Below, piece by piece: positions 23,090-33,945 of a stretch of 64,000 nt of DNA. A model generated the notes under the pieces. It was not told where the DNA came from, did no database searches, and saw nothing but the letters and a program-made list of their open reading frames with translations. Position numbers and translations under genes: made by a program. The DNA lies in contig CAWBOS010000012.1 in assembly GCA_963790475.1 (NCBI GenBank), positions 64,001-128,000 of the forward strand. The letters are read 5' to 3'. Each line of letters begins with the position of its first letter. The first letter of the stretch is position 1. The DNA is from an uncultured delta proteobacterium. Its GTDB lineage: Bacteria > Desulfobacterota > RBG-13-43-22.

Positions 23090-24925
23090 ATGAAAGACAA
23101 TCCATTCCAATATCAAAATATTCGGTTTCTGCCCATCCTCCACAACCGCCTGGAGTTCGCCCTGGAGGTCCACCGGCAAATTCTTGAATTCCAGCCCCAG
23201 GTCATAGCGGTTGAGCTCCCCCCAACTATTCAAGAGCCGGTCTTGACTGCGGTCAAAAGACTGCCCGACCTCTCCGTGATCCTCTATCCTGAAAAATCAG
23301 GGCGTTATATTTATCTTCCCATAGAGCCGGTAGATGGAATTATTGAGGCCATACGCCTGGGCATCGAGAAAACCCTCCCGGTTTTTTTTATCGACCGGGA
23401 TACCGAGGCCTATCCCCAGAGGTCCGATCCCATGCCCGATCCTTATGCCGTCACCCAAATCGGTTATCGGTCCTATTGCCTGGCCTACCTTAAAGAACGG
23501 GGACAGGAGACCCCTTCGCCTGACGATGCCTTAAGAGAACGCACCATGGCCAGTCAGGCCCTCAGATTAAACCATCAATATCAGAGAATCCTGCTGATTT
23601 GTGGGCTGATCCATTGGTCGGGCATTGTTCACCAACTCGATAAGAACCCGGAATTGCCCTTGGGAAGACAGAAACGCTCCGGGGTCATCGTCGGATATTT
23701 GAAAGAATCCTCCAGCCGGGAAATCCTCTCTGAAATGCCTTTTCTGCAAAGGAGATATGAAGAAGAAAGGGCCTGTGCCGGTTCCCATGATTCCCATTTT
23801 CTAAAGCTGAATCGTCTGTCCGTTCAGGAAGAATTGTTAAACGGGGCCAAGGAAGCGCATCGGAAAAACAGCCGGGAAAAGATCGAGACCTATCAGTTGG
23901 GCCAGATAAGAAAATTTGCCCGTAACCTGGCCTTGATTCAAGGTAGTTTATCACCTGATTTTTATCAGTTGTTAATGGCCTCCAGGGGAATGGTCAACGA
24001 CAATTTTGCCTATGAGGTTTGGGACCTTGCCTCCCGTTATCCTTTTCAGGAAGCCTCCCCTCCATTGCCGGAAATCGAGGTAACGGCAGAAGATCTGCGG
24101 ATTAACCAAAAACAGATTCGTTTTTACCGACGTTTTCGGACTTTTCGACCTCGGCTGGTGCCTGTCCCTTTAAAAAAGAGGCCTTCTCCGGCAGAAAAAG
24201 AGGGATACAAAAAGCATTGGGACGGCCGGTATATCTGCTCCTATCCCCCGGAAGATATCCGGGTGGAAGGGCTGGGTGATTATGTCAAAAAAAAGGTCCG
24301 GGGTGTTTTGTCTCAGGAACAAGTCCGGGTGATTCCTTTTTCTTCCTCCATGATGGACGGTTTGGATATCCGGGAGACCTTGCGTCAGGTTGTGGAACAA
24401 AAGATCTATGTCCGGGAAGAGATCCAGGTCCGCGGACGGGTGGGATCAGTGGTATTTATTTTCCATGAGGATGAACCGCCGGAGGAGAAGACGGAACAGT
24501 TCCCATGGAAATTAACCTGGCTGGGGGAACACAATCAGGAATCGGATATGGCCTTTTATGCCACTCCGGCCGGAGATGAGGTGATCGGTCCGGGCATTTC
24601 CCGCTGTGAGTACGGCGGCTTTGTTTTGAGTTATCCCCCCTTCCGGATGGCTGACATCTGGAAAGACCGTTTTTTCAATATGGCCCGCTCCAAGGCCGAG
24701 AGATTGCTTCTATCCGGGATCGATTACAGTGAAGAACGGCTGGTGGCCTATATCGCCGCGAAACCTCCCCGTTCCTATTGCCATACTTTTGCCCATAACC
24801 AAGGTCGGAAGATCATCTACCTGCCCCTGGGCCAATTCTCTCCCGTGCTTCTGACCAAAATCCGCTTTTTTCATGTCCTGGAAAATCCGGATTTGCGCCG
24901 AGTCGCTCATTTCTATGTTCGGTGA
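23090..24925 (+). CDS. Hypothetical protein, 611 aa, with a TraB/DUF5682-like N terminus
   Basis: Long ORF with host-like codon usage; LPILH, IAVELP, RERTMA, CGLIHW. Confidence 0.7.
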   Translation: MKDNPFQYQNIRFLPILHNRLEFALEVHRQILEFQPQVIAVELPPTIQEPVLTAVKRLPDLSVILYPEKSGRYIYLPIEPVDGIIEAIRLGIEKTLPVFFIDRDTEAYPQRSDPMPDPYAVTQIGYRSYCLAYLKERGQETPSPDDALRERTMASQALRLNHQYQRILLICGLIHWSGIVHQLDKNPELPLGRQKRSGVIVGYLKESSSREILSEMPFLQRRYEEERACAGSHDSHFLKLNRLSVQEELLNGAKEAHRKNSREKIETYQLGQIRKFARNLALIQGSLSPDFYQLLMASRGMVNDNFAYEVWDLASRYPFQEASPPLPEIEVTAEDLRINQKQIRFYRRFRTFRPRLVPVPLKKRPSPAEKEGYKKHWDGRYICSYPPEDIRVEGLGDYVKKKVRGVLSQEQVRVIPFSSSMMDGLDIRETLRQVVEQKIYVREEIQVRGRVGSVVFIFHEDEPPEEKTEQFPWKLTWLGEHNQESDMAFYATPAGDEVIGPGISRCEYGGFVLSYPPFRMADIWKDRFFNMARSKAERLLLSGIDYSEERLVAYIAAKPPRSYCHTFAHNQGRKIIYLPLGQFSPVLLTKIRFFHVLENPDLRRVAHFYVR

Positions 24926-25245: not shown

Positions 25246-25328
25246 TGTTTACCTTCTTTATTTAAAAATAATCAAGAATAGGTTATCATATTTTTCCCTT
25301 TTATCCAAAAAATATTGAATTATTGACC

Positions 25329-25793
25329 ATGGAAGAAATATTCTCCAAGCTCATCTCCGGAGGACAAACCGGCGTGGACCGGGCGGCCCTCGATGCGGCC
25401 CTGGAATTGGGCTTACCGACAGGCGGGTGGTGCCCCAAGGGCCGGCGAGCCGAGGACGGCTCGATTCCCATGCATTATACTTTGCTGGAGACCAGCTCCT
25501 CAGCCTATCCGACCCGGACCGAAAAAAATATCCTGGGCTCGGACGGCACCCTTATCCTGACCTGGGGACGACCTACGGGCGGAACGGCCCTGACCATTAA
25601 ATTGGCCAGGGTTCACCAAAAACCGTTTTTGATTATTGACCTGTCCGCCGTAAAGGACTTTCATGCGGTTCGGGAATGGGGCAAGACTTACCAAATCAAA
25701 ATCCTGAACGTGGCCGGTCCCAGGGAGAGTGAGGCCCCTGGAATACATAATAAGGCCTTTTCTTTTTTAATAAAAATCCTTCGGTCCTTCTAA
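25329..25793 (+). CDS. Putative molybdenum carrier / cpYpsA SLOG family protein
   Basis: ISGGQTGVDRAALD, GGWCPKGR, RTEKN, LNVAGPRES. Confidence 0.9.
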   Translation: MEEIFSKLISGGQTGVDRAALDAALELGLPTGGWCPKGRRAEDGSIPMHYTLLETSSSAYPTRTEKNILGSDGTLILTWGRPTGGTALTIKLARVHQKPFLIIDLSAVKDFHAVREWGKTYQIKILNVAGPRESEAPGIHNKAFSFLIKILRSF

Positions 25794-25803
25794 CGCCCCC
25801 TAT

Positions 25804-26616
25804 TTACCCCGGCGTTTCCATATTGGTCAAAACCAGCAGGCGGAGGGAATTTCCTTTGTAGTTCTTCCCCGACAAACAATAAAGGCTGGGAGGTTCCAGG
25901 CCGGATTCGATCACCATCGTCTTCCAGGTCTCGGCCTTGGAGTGCAAACGGTCCCGGGGATTCAACGGAAAAACAAAAAAATACCTGCCTGATGGCCGTT
26001 CCGATAAAATCCTTTTGATTTCTTTCAGCACTCGGGGCACATCGGGAATTAGGTCCAATAAATTAATACTGATGATTAAATCTCCGGTATGCTCCGCCAA
26101 GGGCAGGTGTTCTACCTTGCCGACCGTAAAATGAATGTTATTAATTTCTCTTTGCCGGGCCAGATGGGTTCCATGTTTGATCATGTGATGAGAAAAATCC
26201 AGGCCGAAAATTCTACTTCCTGGGCAACAGTACTGGGCCAGGAAAACCTCCTGCCAGCATGAACCGGCCCCCAGGCTGATGATGTTATGATAGGTTTCCA
26301 ACCGATCCAGGCGGTTTAACAATAAAAGTCCGCGGTTCAAATTCCTTCTCGAATATTCGGCCCAGGTGGGCGCCCAGCTTTCCCAGAAAAACGGGTTTTC
26401 TAATTTTTGTTCGGAGATCCCTTTGAATTTTTTTAAGGCCCTCTCCAGAGCTTCGAGTTCTTCGGTTCGCAATTCAGGTCCCAGGGTACTTTCCAGAAAT
26501 TCTTCCCAGGTTTTTTCAACCAATACCTGTTGAGGGGTCAAGGGGATAAATTGCCTTCCGAAATATGTGCCCTTCGGTGTTAATTTTATGGATTGGACCA
26601 GATTATTATTCATCAT
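25804..26616 (-). CDS. Class I SAM-dependent methyltransferase
   Basis: SLGAGS, GLDFS..M, VEHLPL, LKEIKRIL. Confidence 0.8.
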   Translation of the reverse strand: MMNNNLVQSIKLTPKGTYFGRQFIPLTPQQVLVEKTWEEFLESTLGPELRTEELEALERALKKFKGISEQKLENPFFWESWAPTWAEYSRRNLNRGLLLLNRLDRLETYHNIISLGAGSCWQEVFLAQYCCPGSRIFGLDFSHHMIKHGTHLARQREINNIHFTVGKVEHLPLAEHTGDLIISINLLDLIPDVPRVLKEIKRILSERPSGRYFFVFPLNPRDRLHSKAETWKTMVIESGLEPPSLYCLSGKNYKGNSLRLLVLTNMETPG

Positions 26617-26625
26617 AGTTTTCCT

Positions 26626-26768
26626 GAGAGCCTTGAAAAAGGTTCAATTTTGGTCAAGATCAAGGAAGACGAAAATTTTAACCACAGGAATACATATAGT
26701 ATTTCGAGGATTAAAATTTGAGTCTGACACAGAGATTGGGCAAAAGGGGACATTTTTGAAAAACTCTC
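26626..26768. mobile_element. MITE-like repeat, copy 1 (about 143 bp)
   Basis: Closely similar to 53636-53777; inverted ends GAGAGCCTTGAAAAA...TTTTTGAAAAACTCTC. Confidence 0.8.
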
Positions 26769-28215
26769 ATCCTTTGATGACTCCTAATGGTCTCAACCTG
26801 GCCACCTTTTTGGCAATACCGGCCTGATGGATCACCTCGACCACTTGGGCCACATCCTTATAGGCCTCCGAGATTTCTTCGACGATGGTCCCCAAGCCGG
26901 CCCCTTGCACATATATTCCCCGGTCCTCCATCTCCCGGACTACAGACCGGCCTCTGGCAGCCTTCTTAGCAGCCTGGCGGCTCATGACCCGGCCGGCGCC
27001 ATGACAGGCACTGCCGAAAGTCTCTTGCATAGCCCGATCGGTTCCCAACAAAACATAAGAGTAACGGCCCATGTCACCTGGTATCAGGACCGGCTGCCCT
27101 ATCTCCCGAAAGGCTGGTGGGATCTGAGGATGATTGGGAGGGAAAGCCCGGGTCGCCCCCTTGCGGTGCACGCATAAAGATTTCATTAGACCATCCACCT
27201 GGTGATCCTCAAATTTCGCAATATTATGGCACAGGTCATAGATCAGTTCCAGTTGCAGAATCTTGGGACTGATCCGCAAAACCCGTTCCAGGGTTTCCTG
27301 AACCCAATGGGTAATAATCTGCCGGTTGGCAAAAGCGAAGTTGGCGGCCGCAGCCATAACCGCCAGATATTCCCTCCCTTCGGAAGAGGCGATTGGGGCG
27401 CAGCACAATTGTCGATCCGGTAATTCGATGCCATATTTGGCCGTGGCCGGGATGAGTTTTTTTATGGCGTCGTCACAAACCTGGTGTCCGAGACCCCGAG
27501 ATCCGGTATGGACCATTACCGTGACCTGTTGGTCAAAAAGGCCCAGTTGGCTGGCCGCTTTCGGATCGTAAATCGTTTCCACATAACCTACTTCGACAAA
27601 ATGATTACCCGAACCGAGGGTGCCTAATTGATCTTTTCCTCGTTCCATGGCCCTGGCCGAAACCAGATCCGGCCCGGCCCCCTCGATACAACCGCCTTCT
27701 TCGATATGTTCCAGATCTTCCTGGCCCCCGAACCCTTGGCTCACAGCCCACCGCGCACCCAGAGCCAACACTTTTTCCTGATCCTTGGCTGTAAGTTTAA
27801 AATCCTTGCGGTGTGAACCCAACCCGGAAGGGATATTCCGAAACAGGGCCTGGACGATTTCCTTGACCCGGCCTTCGATCTCTTTGCGGCTCAACCCGGA
27901 GCGCAGCAACCGCACCCCTCAATTGATGTCGTAGCCCACCCCGCCCGGCGAGACGACCCCTTGGTCAGGATCAAAAGCCGCAACGCCTCCAATAGGGAAA
28001 CCGTACCCCCAATGGATATCCGGCATGCCCAACGAGGGGCCGACAATTCCCGGCAGCCAGGCGACATTGGCCACTTGCTGCAGGCTTTGGTCCTGCTTTA
28101 AATCGGAAAGCAGGGCCTCGGACACGAAAACCAGGCCATCGGTCCGCATCTTCCCCTCCCGGGGGATCCGGAAACGGTAATCATCTATTTTTTCAATTTT
28201 TATTTTCTCGCTCAT
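26767..28215 (-). CDS. rtcB: RtcB RNA ligase (archaeal/eukaryote-like), probable selenoprotein (U99)
   Basis: Two ORFs join in frame through TGA 27921-27919: [16 protein letters not shown], where the family reads DINCGVR. Other motifs [40 protein letters not shown] are intact. GGAG RBS before ATG 28215. Confidence 0.9.
27885..27918 (-). promoter_or_regulatory. Bacterial SECIS-like hairpin
   Basis: TGCGCTC-CGGGTT-GAGC(C)GCA; the loop starts 20 nt after the UGA and has G at its second position. Confidence 0.55.
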
Positions 28216-28386: not shown

Positions 28387-28815
28387 TCATAGATCGAAAA
28401 TTACCCGGGCCCGCCAAAACCCCTTTGCTTCCCATATACGCAACTGATGATAGGTGACCGCTTTGACCACTGTCTTGACCTGGTGTTTCTTTGGATCAAG
28501 GGATTCTCCCCAGCCAATGGCGGAAAGGGTCTGAGGAGTCATGGTCTGAATTGATAACCGGCCAAAAACCAGATGTTCTGTTTCAAAGATATATAAAAGC
28601 TCACCAAGCCAAGCCACCAGAAGGGCTTCCAGGTCCGGGGCTTCACTGGTAATCGCTCTTTCCTGTCGTAGCTTAATCCCACGGGCTTCCACCATGACAT
28701 CAAAAAAAGCCCAGCCCGCCTGGGCAAAAAGATCAGGAAGGTCCTTCCCCCAAACCTCCATGCCTAAATCAGCCGGGTGGGATATCAGGCGATATGGTTT
28801 TCGAAATTTGTCCAT
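28387..28815 (-). CDS. Archease
   Basis: HPADLG, LLVAWLGELLY, VKAVTYHQL, VIFDL. Confidence 0.93.
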   Translation of the reverse strand: MDKFRKPYRLISHPADLGMEVWGKDLPDLFAQAGWAFFDVMVEARGIKLRQERAITSEAPDLEALLVAWLGELLYIFETEHLVFGRLSIQTMTPQTLSAIGWGESLDPKKHQVKTVVKAVTYHQLRIWEAKGFWRARVIFDL

Positions 28816-28931: not shown

Positions 28932-30101
28932 TTAATGAATCGAGGCGCTGTTGGGGTCCAGCTTGACTGAGATGGCGATTTTATAAAGAAGGGTCAGCAC
29001 CAGAAAACCGGTGGCCCAAACTCCGAGGGCGATAAAGATTTCCGGCAGAGTAGGGGCATATTGGGTAATGTGCTCCAGGGGAGAAGGCACAAAGCCGGTA
29101 ATGACCAGGGTAATTCCCTTTTCAATCCACAGCGAGCCGAAAACCCCAATGCAGGCCGCCATCAGCCAGGCATTGCTTCTCTTTACCAAAGGTAATAATA
29201 AAATTAAGGCGGACAGGACACCGGCCACCACCGAGACCCAGGTCCAGGGCACGTAACGGTTATAACCGTCCAGTCCCCAGAAGAGATACTGAAGGGGTTG
29301 TTTATGGGAGGGGATATTACTGTAGAAGGCAGTAAAAATCTCCAGAAGAACAAAGAAAATACTAAGCAACATGGCGTAGGCGACAATATTTTTCAGCTTA
29401 TTGATGGCTGTTTGTCCGGGATCAAAACCGGTCAAACGCTTGACCAGCAGGCCCAGGATGATCAACAAGGCCGGACCGGCGGCAAAGGCCGAACCCAAAA
29501 AGCGGACGGCCATGATAGCCGTCAGCCAGTAATGCCGGCTGGGCTGGCCGGCGTACAGAAAGGCCGTGACCGTATGGATACTGATCGCCCAGGGTATGGA
29601 GAGATAAATAAGCGGCTTAACCCACTTGGGCGGGGCAACCGCCTTTCTTTCTGCGGCCAGGATATTCCAGCCTATAAGGATATTAAGCAGCAGATAGACG
29701 TTCAAAACGATAAAATCCCAGAAAAGGATGGAATTCGGTGTCGGGTAGAGGATGAGATTCAAAACCCGGGTCGGATAGCCCATATCGACGAAGACAAAAA
29801 GCATGCACATGATCACCGCGGCAATAGCCAGGAATTCCCCCAGGATAGTGATCCTCCCAAAGTCCTCGATATTATGCAGGTAATAAGGCAAAACCAGCAT
29901 GACCGCCGAAGCCGCCACTCCGACCAGGAAGGTAAACTGGCCGATATACAACCCCCAGGAGACATCCCGTGACATCCCGGTTATGCGCAAGCCTTCATTG
30001 AACTGATAGAGATAACAGATAAAACCGATGCCGATAAAGATCAGTAAAAAGAAGATCCAGCTCCAATACTCTTTTGATCCGGACAGCGCCTTTTCAAACA
30101 T
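28932..30101 (-). CDS. dsrP: DsrP, NrfD-family membrane subunit
   Basis: TGMSRDVSWGLYI, SIHTVTAFL; last gene of dsrMKJOP. Confidence 0.95.
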   Translation of the reverse strand: MFEKALSGSKEYWSWIFFLLIFIGIGFICYLYQFNEGLRITGMSRDVSWGLYIGQFTFLVGVAASAVMLVLPYYLHNIEDFGRITILGEFLAIAAVIMCMLFVFVDMGYPTRVLNLILYPTPNSILFWDFIVLNVYLLLNILIGWNILAAERKAVAPPKWVKPLIYLSIPWAISIHTVTAFLYAGQPSRHYWLTAIMAVRFLGSAFAAGPALLIILGLLVKRLTGFDPGQTAINKLKNIVAYAMLLSIFFVLLEIFTAFYSNIPSHKQPLQYLFWGLDGYNRYVPWTWVSVVAGVLSALILLLPLVKRSNAWLMAACIGVFGSLWIEKGITLVITGFVPSPLEHITQYAPTLPEIFIALGVWATGFLVLTLLYKIAISVKLDPNSASIH

Positions 30102-30108
30102 AGTCACC

Positions 30109-30888
30109 TCATACTAAAAAATAGACATTGGGTTGGGTTCCCAAACTGGGTTTCCTTCGGATGGAATAATTTTCCCGGAGAAGTTGCCTCACATTAGACT
30201 GGGGATCATTGATGTCACCAAAGACCATCCTCCCGTTGCTGGCCTCGGCACAGGCCGGGTACAGCCCTTTGGCCAGCCGCTCTTCGCAGAAATTACACTT
30301 TTCTACCACCCCTTTAGACCGGGTCGGAAAGTCCGGGTTGTCGTATGGTTCTTTAAGGAACCTCCGGGGATCCCCCCAGTTAAAACTCCGGGCCCCGTAA
30401 GGACAGCCGGCCATGCAGAACCGGCAGCCGATACAGCGGTGAAAATCCATCATGACGATCCCGTCGGAAGCCCGTTTAAAAGTAGCCTGAGTGGGACAGA
30501 CCCGGACGCAAGGCGGGTTAGTGCAATGATTGCAAAGAACCAAATAGGAATTGCGCTCCATCCCTTCAGGCAAATATTGGTTTTGGTCATCGGGAAAGGC
30601 GTTTTCATATTTTTCCTTCCAGATCCATTTAATCTCCTGGCGCACCTGGTCCACCTTGGGGATATTGTGCGCCTTGTCACAGGCCTCGATGCATCTTTGA
30701 AAGTCTTCTGGACTTTGGAATTGTTTTGTTTTGATGACCATGGCCCATTGTTTTTTTCTTGGCGAGGGCACCGGACTCTGAGCCTCAACCGCCCCGGGCT
30801 TAAGGATCTCAAAAGCGGCCTTGCCTCCCAGCCCCCAGAGGGTAGCTATCCCGCTAATCCTTAAGAATTCTCTCCTATTGATGCCCAT
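30109..30888 (-). CDS. dsrO: DsrO periplasmic Fe-S protein
   Basis: Tat motif NRREFL; CNHCTNPPCVRVCP, CIGCRFCMAGCP, CNFC. Confidence 0.93.
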   Translation of the reverse strand: MGINRREFLRISGIATLWGLGGKAAFEILKPGAVEAQSPVPSPRKKQWAMVIKTKQFQSPEDFQRCIEACDKAHNIPKVDQVRQEIKWIWKEKYENAFPDDQNQYLPEGMERNSYLVLCNHCTNPPCVRVCPTQATFKRASDGIVMMDFHRCIGCRFCMAGCPYGARSFNWGDPRRFLKEPYDNPDFPTRSKGVVEKCNFCEERLAKGLYPACAEASNGRMVFGDINDPQSNVRQLLRENYSIRRKPSLGTQPNVYFLV

Positions 30889-31289
30889 CAGTTGTTCTCC
30901 TTCGGTGCAATATGGCAATCCCAGCAGAAGGGTTTGACCACCATATAATTATGACACTGATCGCAAAATTTGGTTTTGTTGGAGTGGCATTTCAAACAGC
31001 CGTTTTGAAGACTCTTTTCAAAAACCCGGCCGTCGGCCGTGGTCAGTTGCCGTCTATTATCCCCACGCACCACATCATATCGCCACTCATCCAGGATTTT
31101 CATATGGGTGGTGATCATTGTCGCCTTGGGTTCGATGCACTTTTTTTCCTTCATTTCCTGAATGACCGGTGTATCTATTTTAGGATCCGGCGGGGGAGCG
31201 GCTTTCCCCAGGTTATACCACAGGGGAAAGGTGACCAGGATCACAAAGACAATAATCATGGGAATGATTTTATTTTCGTCGTACATCAT
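30888..31289 (-). CDS. dsrJ: DsrJ triheme cytochrome c
   Basis: CLKCH, CDQCH, CWDCH. Confidence 0.95.
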   Translation of the reverse strand: MMYDENKIIPMIIVFVILVTFPLWYNLGKAAPPPDPKIDTPVIQEMKEKKCIEPKATMITTHMKILDEWRYDVVRGDNRRQLTTADGRVFEKSLQNGCLKCHSNKTKFCDQCHNYMVVKPFCWDCHIAPKENN

Positions 31290-32914
31290 TCTTCTTTATC
31301 CTCCTCGGCTTCTTCTCCCAAAGGTTCACCGCGTAAATTCGTGGTCCGTTCAATCTCCCCATCCATAATCAGGGCATTGGCCACCAATTCATGGAGCCCG
31401 GTGACCCCGACTTCCGGCACCCAGTATTCCATCAAGGTGCTTAAAGCCGCCCGGTCGATAGCGCAGATATTGGCCAGCATATTGACCCCGTGTTTCTCCT
31501 GAACAAATTTTACGGCGTTGGCCCTGGGAAATCCCCCCCGCATACGGAGTTCCATATTTTCACCGGCATTCAAACCCGAGCCGCTGCCGCAGCAGAAGGT
31601 TTGTTCCCGAATGGTACCCTCCGGCATTTCAAAGAAATTATTACAAACGCTTTGGAGCACATAGCGGGGCTCTTCAAAAAAGCCCATACCACGAGCTGGG
31701 TTGCAGGAATCATGAAAGGTAACTTTGAGGTGATCGTTCCGGCTGGGATCCAGTTTTAACTTTCCATTCTTGATCAGGTCGGCGGTAAACTCGACGATAT
31801 GGACCATCTTGGTCGAAGACGAGTTTTCAAACTTGGTTCCGGTAATCGGGGAAACAGGCAGTTCCAGAAAATCGGCCGGTCCGTTCATGGTATCCATATA
31901 CTGATTGACCACCCGCCACATATGCCCGCACTCACCGCCCAGGATCCATTTGACCCCCAGCCGCTTGGCTTCGGCATACATCTTGGTATTGAGTCTCTTC
32001 ATCATTTCATGGGAGGTGAAAAATCCGAAATTCCCCCCTTCGGAAGCATAGGTGCTCCAGGTATAATCCAGGCCCAGCTGATGAAACAACATCAGGTAGC
32101 CCATGCAGGTATAGGTGCCGGGGTCGGCAAAGACATCCCCGGAAGGAGTGACGAAGAGGATCTCGGCCCCTTTCCGGTTGAAAGAGGGCTCGGGCCGGAT
32201 GCCGGTGACCCCTTCGATTTCATCCAGGAAGAAATCGATCATGTCTTTAAAGGCATGGGGCTCGATTCCCAGGTGATTTCCTTTCCGGAAGCAGTTAGCC
32301 ACCGGACCGGCGATCCAGTCGATATTCAAGCCCAGCAGGTTCAGAAGCTCCCGGCCGATAATGGTTACTTCGGCAGTGTCGATGCCGTAAGGGCAAAATA
32401 CGGAACAGCGCCGGCACTCAGTGCACTGGAAAAAATAACTCCACCACTCCTTCACGACATCCTCGGTTAGGTCTCGGGCCCCGACCATTTTTCCGAAGAT
32501 CTTGCCGGCCGTGGTGAATTCCCGACGATAGACCGAACGCAGGAGTTCTGCCCTTAAAACCGGCATATTTTTCGGATCTCCGGAACCGATAAAAAAATGA
32601 CATTTATCGGCGCAGGCCCCGCAGCGGACACAGATATCCATAAAGATATGGAAACTCCGGAAACGGCTGATCCGCTCCCTGATGCCTTCAATGATAATCG
32701 TCTTCCAATTGTCGGGTAATTTCCAATCCGCATCCATAGGATTCCAGGCCCGGGCATTGGGAAGCCCTACCGCTTCCAGGTTTTTGGCTTGAGCCCCGTA
32801 GCAATAGGTCCCCGGTTTAATGACCGCCGGCGTATCCATCCAGCCTTTTAACAGCGGTGGGGAATGTTTTATTCGGGATAGTTCTTCGGGAGATTGGATT
32901 TTTTTATCGGCCAT
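31286..32914 (-). CDS. dsrK: DsrK Fe-S/CCG protein
   Basis: CVRCGACADKC, CTECRRCSVFCP, GECGH, HDSCN, FCCG. Confidence 0.96.
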   Translation of the reverse strand: MADKKIQSPEELSRIKHSPPLLKGWMDTPAVIKPGTYCYGAQAKNLEAVGLPNARAWNPMDADWKLPDNWKTIIIEGIRERISRFRSFHIFMDICVRCGACADKCHFFIGSGDPKNMPVLRAELLRSVYRREFTTAGKIFGKMVGARDLTEDVVKEWWSYFFQCTECRRCSVFCPYGIDTAEVTIIGRELLNLLGLNIDWIAGPVANCFRKGNHLGIEPHAFKDMIDFFLDEIEGVTGIRPEPSFNRKGAEILFVTPSGDVFADPGTYTCMGYLMLFHQLGLDYTWSTYASEGGNFGFFTSHEMMKRLNTKMYAEAKRLGVKWILGGECGHMWRVVNQYMDTMNGPADFLELPVSPITGTKFENSSSTKMVHIVEFTADLIKNGKLKLDPSRNDHLKVTFHDSCNPARGMGFFEEPRYVLQSVCNNFFEMPEGTIREQTFCCGSGSGLNAGENMELRMRGGFPRANAVKFVQEKHGVNMLANICAIDRAALSTLMEYWVPEVGVTGLHELVANALIMDGEIERTTNLRGEPLGEEAEEDKEE

Positions 32915-32916
32915 GG

Positions 32917-33945
32917 TTACTCCTTCTCCACTGGGATTCCAGCCTCAACCATTTTTTCTCTGAACTCTTCCTCATATTCATCATAGGTATGGACCTTTAC
33001 CGGATAATTCCAGGGATTAATATGTCTGACAAAGCGGTTATTGTTGGCCATGATCCTGGTCGGACTCAGGAAGACCCCCCCCAAATGGACCAACTTACTG
33101 AAGGGGAAATAGGCCAAAAGGCAACAGACCGAAAAAAGGTGCATATAAAAAAGGACCCCGATTCCCTGAGGCACTGTAGGATGAAAAGTCACCAGCCCCA
33201 TGACCAATTCTTTCACGCCGACCACATCAACCTTCAGCAAATAGCGCATCAGAATCCCGGTGGTGGCAATGGCCATAATCAAAAATAAAGGGAAATAATC
33301 GGTGGGCAGGGAAATATACCGAACGGTGGGGATATAAACCCTTCTCAAGAACAAATAGCCGGCTGCTGCCAACAGGACGATTCCACTGAGGTACAATCCC
33401 GGGAGCATTAAACCAGGTAATGGGCCGATTCCGAATTGCATAAAACCATCCAGGGCTTCCAGGCCGGTTACGAAAGCCGGGACCGGCTGGGTAAAAAATC
33501 GGAGGTGCCGCAAGATAACCACCAGAAAGGAATAATGGAAAAGGATGGCCGACAGCCATAGCCACTTTTCCCATTCATAGGTCACCCGCGGTCCTTCTCT
33601 GAATTCCATCGTGGAATTACGAAAAAGAGAACGAAAGAGCAGGATTTCCAAAAGCATCCGGCCGAAAACGCCTGCGGCGCTGGAAGGATTCTCGATTTTG
33701 TTGGATTTGATCCAGGGGAAGGATTTCTGTTGGCCGGCGGTGGTGGGAATTCGAAAGGGGACCGCAGAAAAAGACCAAAGGAGCAATCGGCCGACCACCC
33801 CCACTAAAAAAAGAACCATGGCCGCATAGGGAATAATCACCCCGAATAAAACCTGCAGGTTAGCCACCTGCATCCCGACAAAGGGAATGAAAACGAGAAC
33901 CAGTACCGTGATGAAGGATATGATAATGCCCAATATAAAATTCAT
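32917..33945 (-). CDS. dsrM: DsrM cytochrome b membrane subunit
   Basis: PFRIPTTAGQQKS, FRSLFRN, FHYS, RHLRFF, PFSKLVH. Confidence 0.95.
   Translation of the reverse strand: MNFILGIIISFITVLVLVFIPFVGMQVANLQVLFGVIIPYAAMVLFLVGVVGRLLLWSFSAVPFRIPTTAGQQKSFPWIKSNKIENPSSAAGVFGRMLLEILLFRSLFRNSTMEFREGPRVTYEWEKWLWLSAILFHYSFLVVILRHLRFFTQPVPAFVTGLEALDGFMQFGIGPLPGLMLPGLYLSGIVLLAAAGYLFLRRVYIPTVRYISLPTDYFPLFLIMAIATTGILMRYLLKVDVVGVKELVMGLVTFHPTVPQGIGVLFYMHLFSVCCLLAYFPFSKLVHLGGVFLSPTRIMANNNRFVRHINPWNYPVKVHTYDEYEEEFREKMVEAGIPVEKE

Follow-up and report, generated by a model that had tools for sequence, protein, structure and literature searches.

A probable selenocysteine form of the RNA ligase RtcB, encoded with an in-frame UGA in an uncultured delta proteobacterium and its relatives

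Introduction

Whether an in-frame UGA at the catalytic cysteine of an RNA ligase ends the protein or is decoded as selenocysteine (Sec) is the question raised by the rtcB gene studied here. The gene lies in a stretch of 64,000 nucleotides (nt) from an uncultured delta proteobacterium (assembly GCA_963790475.1, contig CAWBOS010000012.1, positions 64,001 to 128,000 of the forward strand), which we call the window; all coordinates below are those of the window. Passages of a 2023 review of RtcB (PMC10630183) describe Cys98 of the Pyrococcus horikoshii enzyme as a ligand of both Mn ions, one being held by Cys98, His234 and His329 and the other by Asp95, Cys98 and His203. The same passages report that replacing this Cys by Ala gave a ligase-dead RtcB in three species, and that the metal-binding Cys is sensitive to oxidation. 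The original prediction, made from the letters of the window, had named both the bridging of the Mn ions by Cys98 and the oxidation sensitivity of the human cysteine; the review passages state the former, and the abstracts of PMC12263435 and PMC10653391 the latter.

In this study, we examined the gene, its relatives, the RNA downstream of the UGA and the Sec pathway of the genome. The results suggest that rtcB very probably encodes a full-length, functional RtcB 3'-phosphate/5'-hydroxyl RNA ligase in which UGA99 is decoded as Sec. Because the UGA aligns with Cys98, which binds both Mn ions, homology points to Sec as the predicted metal ligand.

Results

The gene and its active site

The coding sequence (CDS) and the UGA were located as follows.

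26767..28215, minus strand: rtcB CDS, 482 sense codons including the candidate Sec at codon 99, plus the terminal TGA at 26769-26767; PF01139, E 5.8e-174
27919..27921, minus strand: in-frame UGA, codon 99, candidate Sec codon, aligned with the metal-bridging Cys98 of P. horikoshii RtcB

The original prediction had placed an RtcB gene with UGA at the catalytic Cys at 26767..28215, and these coordinates hold, with the gene on the minus strand. From 27930 to 27910 that strand reads GAC ATC AAT TGA GGG GTG CGG, or D-I-N-stop-G-V-R. When the TGA was read through from the ATG at 28215, a protein of 482 residues with a single internal TGA (27921-27919) was obtained, and 383 sense codons separated this TGA from the terminal one, the same motif and the same number of further codons as had been predicted. 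A standard listing of open reading frames (ORFs) cuts the gene into pieces of 109 and 382 residues.

The read-through product matched the Pfam RtcB family PF01139 over model positions 1-426 of 426, with 579.7 bits against a cut-off of 27 (E 5.8e-174). Solved RtcB structures, including 4DWR, were matched at E 2e-183 to 2e-173 (Thermus thermophilus 2EPG, 2.1e-183; P. horikoshii 1UC2, 2.1e-173), and the predicted fold of the product is settled by this homology. The phmmer alignment with the P. horikoshii chains 4dwr_B and 1uc2_A pairs residue 99 of the query with the Cys of GYDINCGVR, which is residue 98 of the chain. D96 and the His of GSGNHF, HTGSRG, CHNIA and CHGAGR also align with P. horikoshii residues, and the position of the Cys is the UGA. 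The remaining motifs are thus intact, as the original prediction had them. We take D96, CHGAGR and the other motifs to be the RtcB active-site motifs, with a metal-ligand Asp, Cys and three His and a His that takes up GMP. The set is complete only if codon 99 is decoded as Sec or Cys. The genome contains one match to PF01139, the TGA-bearing rtcB itself.

Conservation of the UGA

We compared rtcB in 41 genomes from the same assembly, genus, family and phylum, 35 of which had an RtcB match. One TGA was found in 19 of the 36 listed matches and none in the other 17. We then sampled the phylum with 401 genomes, 326 of which had a match at E <=1e-60; among the 150 matches listed (184 weaker ones lie beyond them), 47 carried one TGA. 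Neither TAA nor TAG occurred inside rtcB among the listed matches of the 41-genome and 401-genome sets. For alignment, we fetched all 51 TGA-bearing loci (window included) and 19 loci without TGA from the same phylum, 11 of the latter from the 41-genome set and eight picked from high-scoring rows of the phylum sample, so that the set is enriched for TGA. The results showed that the TGA stands in the identical column (N-U-G) in 51 of 51 TGA loci, down to about 60% protein identity. In 18 of the other loci the column holds TGC or TGT, and one locus (L055) lies outside the motif. The TGA/Cys pairs that the original prediction had proposed to look for at this column therefore exist, and the TGA is not unique to this genome.

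The ratio of nonsynonymous to synonymous substitution rates (dN/dS) in TGA-bearing genes had a median of 0.079 upstream and 0.096 downstream of the TGA, calculated from 252 usable pairs of 1275, the remainder being saturated at synonymous sites. Purifying selection acts strongly on both halves of rtcB. On a quick maximum-likelihood tree of 69 rows, left unrooted, at least seven changes between Sec and Cys were counted, five of them forced by well-supported branches, and Cys forms were nested within Sec clades in at least five taxonomic families. This pattern fits repeated replacement of Sec by Cys.

The letters of the UGA were also followed in public sequencing runs, where the original prediction had named TGC or TGT as the letters to watch for. 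Contigs of three runs from three studies cover 27919-27921 and keep TGA without a differing letter; this evidence consists of contigs rather than raw reads, and one run is possibly the window's own sample. The contigs of two of the three runs differ from the window elsewhere, indicating that they derive from relatives. A further run, X4, leaves the codon uncovered.

A hairpin downstream of the UGA

A candidate SECIS (Sec insertion sequence) lies shortly after the UGA.

27885..27905, minus strand: candidate SECIS hairpin, UGCGCUC / loop CGGGUU / GAG-(C bulge)-CGCA

Its G-C stem begins 14 nt after the A of the UGA, at 27904, and the loop CGGGUU begins 21 nt after it; the original prediction of a hairpin with a G-containing loop about 20 nt downstream was approximately right. 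Alignment columns 24-42 hardly differ among the 51 Sec sequences, and synonymous positions just upstream vary freely: the Arg codon in columns 16-18 appears as CGG, CGT, CGA, CGC, AGG and AGA, and the stem Arg codon in columns 25-27 is CGC in 50 of 51. The hairpin folds at the same place in all 51 Sec sequences, with a mean of -9.1 kcal/mol; relative to 300 recodings of the peptide by synonymous codons, z averages -2.8. At the same site, the 18 Cys sequences gave a mean of -4.45 kcal/mol and z -0.85 by this control, most of them having lost the hairpin. The Cys forms L091 and L093 encode the same SGLSRK segment by other codons, without the hairpin. In the register of the window, 85.7% of cells pair, compared with 22-42% when the partners are slid by 1-3 columns, and the unpaired cells belong mostly to register-shifted rows (GGAGCGC variants) that pair perfectly in their own fold. 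These results indicate that the hairpin is conserved beyond protein constraint. At the protein level, residues 109 and 107 were the top columns discriminating Sec from Cys forms, both in the segment encoded by the hairpin, and no residue column of the alignment cleanly separated the two.

Another hairpin, directly after the UGA, was considered; 74.1% of its cells pair, a value reached by 204 of 500 shuffles, and it was dropped as not conserved. Three Cys forms (L031, L052 and L094) retain the full hairpin downstream of TGT or TGC; L052, at 55% protein identity, is nearly identical across the 40-nt hairpin stretch. In these three, the hairpin looks like a remnant of a recent Sec-to-Cys replacement, judging from the alignment.

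The Sec pathway in the genome

We searched the genome of the window (6.34 Mb in 20 contigs; bin contamination 9.68%) for the Sec machinery, as the original prediction had asked, and selA, selB, selD and a tRNA-Sec were all found. The selB match scored 390.6 bits, above the curated cut-off. One tRNA-Sec with anticodon tca was identified by ARAGORN and by Rfam RF01852 (74.3 bits). The selD gene itself carries one in-frame TGA, with the translated context GARAAGU(26)ASKLGPGDL, a position that we take to be the known Sec/Cys site of SelD. There are one intact selA and a second, fragmented copy. The intact copy (C20:490-1848) is at the start of a short contig, and the broken one (C13:443305-444664) consists of four frame pieces with a TAA; given the contamination of the bin, the latter could be a decayed duplicate, the trace of a second strain or an assembly error.

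TGA closes 18 of the 52 open stretches of at least 200 codons in the window, and rtcB itself, which argues that TGA is a normal stop in this organism and that its predicted code is not reassigned. Among the other TGA-RtcB genomes, 47 of 50 had selB above the cut-off, the three without it being 76, 85 and 95% complete. The corresponding count for Cys-type genomes was 17 of 18, and the four genomes without selB overall were 73-95% complete. As selB is widespread in Cys-type genomes, its loss does not explain the changes to Cys, and the predicted Sec machinery is general in the group.

Probable Sec-type rtcB genes in records titled to other phyla

A motif scan with G-[VI]-G-[YF]-D-I-N-TGA-G-V, taking one genome per species, returned at least 120 loci, which overlap in part with the phylum loci fetched above. 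In every one, the frame stays open on both sides of the TGA, over as many as 30 codons upstream and 21 downstream. Depositor titles for 80 of these loci named 39 Thermodesulfobacteriota or 'delta proteobacteria', 19 Nitrospirota, 14 Acidobacteriota, two Binatia, one each of Eisenbacteria, Gemmatimonadales, Polyangiaceae and 'Pseudomonadota', and two unnamed organisms; these labels are the depositors' own, unchecked and tallied by hand.

The hairpins of 121 sequences (the scan loci and the window) were classed by fixed registers, with at least 80% of pairs formed.

Class 1: the window's bulged hairpin, 50 of 121
Class 2: 6-base-pair (bp) unbulged hairpin, 19 of 121
Class 3: 8-bp unbulged hairpin, 18 of 121, many from a different sequence, GAAGACC...GGUCUUC, encoding KT[GS]LVF
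Class 4: distal 12-bp hairpin, 14 of 121, nearly all with Nitrospirota-type titles and one Syntrophorhabdaceae
None: no register at the 80% threshold, 20 of 121

The four outer pairs common to classes 1 and 3 covary. Here 29 cells were changed on both sides compared with 14.4 +/- 3.0 after shuffling, and the covariation score was 0.264 compared with 0.190; 0 of 500 shuffles reached either value, in a test that is inflated by the relatedness of the sequences. Slid controls for these pairs gave 34-45% paired. Taken with the recoding control and the pair counts, the outer-pair covariation places a SECIS-like hairpin just downstream of the UGA. The commonest apical loops listed for the scanned loci were GGUC (30), GGUU (12) and GGUCU (10).

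Nitrospirota-titled Sec rtcB genes without the proximal hairpin have a distal stem of about 12 bp, GGAGCAACCUCA ... UGAGGUUGCUCC, in alignment columns 26-56, with visible compensatory changes. The loci with this stem include L105, L107, L108, L113-L115, L121-L123, L125, L142, L145, L156, L157, L162, L163, L166 and L174, and about 14 further rows of the 121 fit it at 8-9 of 12 pairs. As predicted from these alignments, the same UGA is served in these genes by another type of structure, the distal stem. One record titled Syntrophorhabdaceae (L139) has the Nitrospirota-type distal hairpin sequence, unlike other records with delta-proteobacterial titles, which could mean gene transfer or a binning error.

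Genes around rtcB

The genes on either side of rtcB are the following.

28387..28815, minus strand: archease gene, RtcB activation factor, directly upstream of rtcB; PF01951, E 6.9e-43
25804..26616, minus strand: class I S-adenosylmethionine (SAM)-dependent methyltransferase gene, downstream of rtcB; Pfam Methyltransf_31/11/25

An archease match adjoins rtcB in 26 of 30 related loci, Sec and Cys types alike. The methyltransferase adjoins it in nine of the 30, all in the window's own taxonomic family; it may be co-transcribed with rtcB, with a linkage confined to close relatives. The search for sigma-70 promoter-like sites gave four, compared with 3.6 expected by chance, two of them upstream of archease and rtcB. 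A search for sigma-54 -24/-12 sites gave 15 matches compared with 23 expected, none upstream of rtcB.

Directly upstream of archease, a minus-strand run of genes at 28932-33945 encodes, by Pfam, an NrfD-like protein, a 4Fe-4S dicluster protein, a 133-residue ORF without a family, a 542-residue Fe-S protein and a nitrate-reductase-gamma-like protein. We take this run to resemble the DsrMKJOP-type membrane redox complex of a sulfate reducer. On the plus strand, a 611-residue ORF at 23090-24925 had no Pfam family at E 1e-5, and the product of 25323-25793 belongs to the circularly permuted YpsA SLOG family (PF12694, E 2.5e-57), its gene converging on that of the methyltransferase. No tRNA gene was found within the window, and none of the five TGA-joined open stretches tested with Pfam gave another selenoprotein candidate: two had no family match, and in the other three the best-matched stretch starts after the TGA.

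Discussion

Decoding of UGA99 as Sec must be weighed against several other accounts of the same letters. Full-length RtcB would not be made if rtcB were a pseudogene that really ends at the TGA, or if the TGA had arisen through faulty assembly or sequencing. Automatic gene callers do treat TGA-bearing rtcB as truncated, and C-terminal pieces of 382 residues with 91-95% identity stand in public protein sets as tRNA-splicing ligase RtcB (P0005, P0009, P0016, P0023 and P0029); moreover, a bin with 9.68% contamination and a fragmented second selA is an imperfect assembly. Against this, the TGA keeps to one column in all 51 fetched loci, the most distant of them at about 60% identity, and recurs in at least 120 scanned loci, with never a TAA or TAG among the matches listed. 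The dN/dS upstream of the TGA is 0.079, the contigs of three runs concur, and the gene is the sole RtcB of its genome, with archease kept alongside. We give this account almost no credence. A split gene, in which translation stops at the UGA and restarts at a GUG two codons later so that pieces of 98 and 382 residues assemble into a ligase without the cysteine, would draw on the GTG one codon past the TGA, which opens the 382-residue ORF, and on the GAGGGG before it, which resembles a ribosome-binding site. However, G-V-R including the position of the GTG codon is the same in Cys forms and hence not specific to TGA, and the purine run abuts the GUG without spacing. The residue lost in this way is the one whose change from Cys to Ala left the enzyme ligase-dead in the passages of PMC10630183. 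A split gene would also leave unexplained both the conservation of the hairpin beyond protein constraint and the strict alternation of TGA and TGY, and it seems very improbable.

Near-cognate read-through of UGA is known in bacteria, and the UGA might be read by an ordinary tRNA (Trp, Cys or a near-cognate Arg) or under a changed code rather than by the Sec pathway; a cysteine at residue 99 would indeed restore the canonical enzyme. But TGA ends 18 of 52 long open stretches and rtcB, the genome has a complete Sec pathway with a Sec-type selD, and the hairpin stands at the position of a bacterial Sec insertion element, with a matching apex too in relatives. Leaky read-through would also yield little product from the only RtcB gene of the cell. 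We regard this account as about as improbable as a split gene.

Several observations nevertheless weigh against Sec at codon 99. Insertion of Sec is itself deduced from sequence-level evidence, and there is no RNA run among the listed public runs that contain the stretch. Folded alone, the window sequence is not significant (z -0.09 to -0.54), and its minimum-energy fold prefers the other hairpin directly after the UGA. The stem hardly varies in the 51-sequence alignment, so that covariation there is thin and a single pair shows changes in both partners. As selB is equally common in genomes with TGA-type and Cys-type RtcB, its co-occurrence with the UGA does not discriminate between them. Compared with the fdhF element of Escherichia coli, the spacer is 14 nt rather than 11 nt, so that the loop lies one codon farther, and the window loop CGGGUU, closed by a C/U mismatch, is unlike the GGUC apex of fdhF and most relatives. 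Selenolate is a soft ligand for an ion as hard as Mn(II), and the metal chemistry may differ from that of the Cys enzyme. Finally, a passage of PMC4150793 reports self-cleavage, at a peptide bond close by, of a P. horikoshii RtcB engineered to carry Sec98; tolerance of Sec at this site thus cannot be taken for granted. Features that compensate for it may exist in natural Sec forms, but none was found beyond the hairpin-encoded segment.

If UGA99 is decoded as Sec, SelB carrying Sec-tRNA(Sec) would bind the hairpin at 27905-27885 inside the CDS as the ribosome nears the UGA, and would deliver Sec at UGA99 in competition with release factor 2. The genuine terminal UGA, without such a hairpin, would be left to normal termination. 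In the folded protein, the selenolate would take the place of the Cys98 thiolate and bridge the two catalytic metal ions, which would serve GTP-dependent self-guanylylation and RNA sealing, and the archease encoded upstream would act as the usual activation factor. Our preferred guess, by analogy, is that Sec would confer tolerance of oxidation, as a ligand that stays deprotonated and recovers more easily than the oxidation-sensitive Cys. The homologous Cys of the human enzyme is readily inactivated by metal-induced oxidation.

No report of a natural Sec-RtcB was found in the searchable full-text literature. The terms RtcB, ligase, PF01139 and COG1690 had no occurrence in a 2026 review tabulating more than 110 prokaryotic selenoprotein families, in the main text and three supplements of deep-Sep, in four supplements of Peng et al. 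2016, or in the available portions of the BSepDB main text and one supplement. Likewise, 'seleno' does not occur in the 2023 RtcB review (PMC10630183), and no NCBIfam model for a Sec-type RtcB matched the rtcB product. Sec-RtcB is most likely a selenoprotein family missing from the catalogues searched, as a new Sec variant of a known enzyme. Gene callers split or truncate Sec-type rtcB, and the 382-residue fragments in public sets, together with the lack of a matching NCBIfam model, indicate that the family is mis-annotated in many genomes of sediment and soil bacteria.

To our knowledge, nearly all known selenoproteins are redox enzymes. If confirmed, an RNA ligase that catalyses no redox reaction yet uses Sec to bridge its metals would add to the known roles of selenium in proteins. 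The Sec and Cys forms would also make a natural experiment on the best-known weakness of RtcB, oxidative loss of its active-site Cys: sister species would supply U99 and C99 enzymes whose activity, choice of metal and tolerance of oxidants could be set side by side. A broader proposal sees in RtcB a selenoprotein family that is natural and widespread, and the first one among nucleic-acid ligases and enzymes of RNA repair. Its selenolate would bridge a two-metal nucleotidyl-transfer centre, and anaerobic bacteria would have swapped an oxidation-prone Cys for Sec, meeting within the enzyme a problem that animals solve with PYROXD1; this exchange may also move the metal preference of RtcB away from Mn(II). 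We put this forward tentatively and, taken as a whole, lean slightly against it.

Comparison with known systems

The element of E. coli K-12 fdhF, the gene of formate dehydrogenase H, consists of the UGA, 11 nt and GGUUGCAGGUCUGCACC, and in both fdhF and rtcB a short hairpin follows the UGA inside the CDS. The apex CA-GGUC-UG of most RtcB relatives equals the apex of fdhF, UGCA-GGUC-UGCA. SECIS elements of the fdhF type have a bulged U in the 5' arm. The bulge of the window hairpin is a C on the 3' arm and differs from that type, which the hairpin resembles, as far as its predicted fold goes, without conforming to it. The product of fdhF is a redox enzyme and RtcB is not; we know of no redox step for RtcB.

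In [NiFeSe] hydrogenases and in Mo/W formate dehydrogenases, families in which Sec and Cys are interchangeable, the metal is bound directly by a selenolate in place of the Cys thiolate. Those are redox enzymes with Ni or Mo/W, whereas the ligase RtcB, with its two-Mn(II) site, transfers nucleotidyl groups.

Closest to the product of the window are the Cys-type RtcB proteins, T. thermophilus TTHA1785 (2EPG), P. horikoshii PH1602 (1UC2/4DWQ/4DWR) and human RTCB (7P3B), with which it shares full-length homology, the other active-site motifs and an archease partner gene. It differs from them in that the position of the metal-bridging Cys is a UGA with a putative insertion hairpin, and in that the RSGLSR segment is fixed at the nucleotide level by this hairpin. 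The engineered P. horikoshii U98 enzyme has Sec at exactly the same site, but it is artificial: passages of PMC4150793 describe a UAG codon, delivery by EF-Tu and no SECIS, and natural Sec forms are unmentioned in them. In human RTCB, the conserved Cys undergoes metal-induced oxidative inactivation and is protected by PYROXD1 and thioredoxin, according to the abstracts of PMC12263435 and PMC10653391. The weak point is the same residue in both cases; metazoans guard the Cys with a partner oxidoreductase, and here the residue itself appears to have been replaced.

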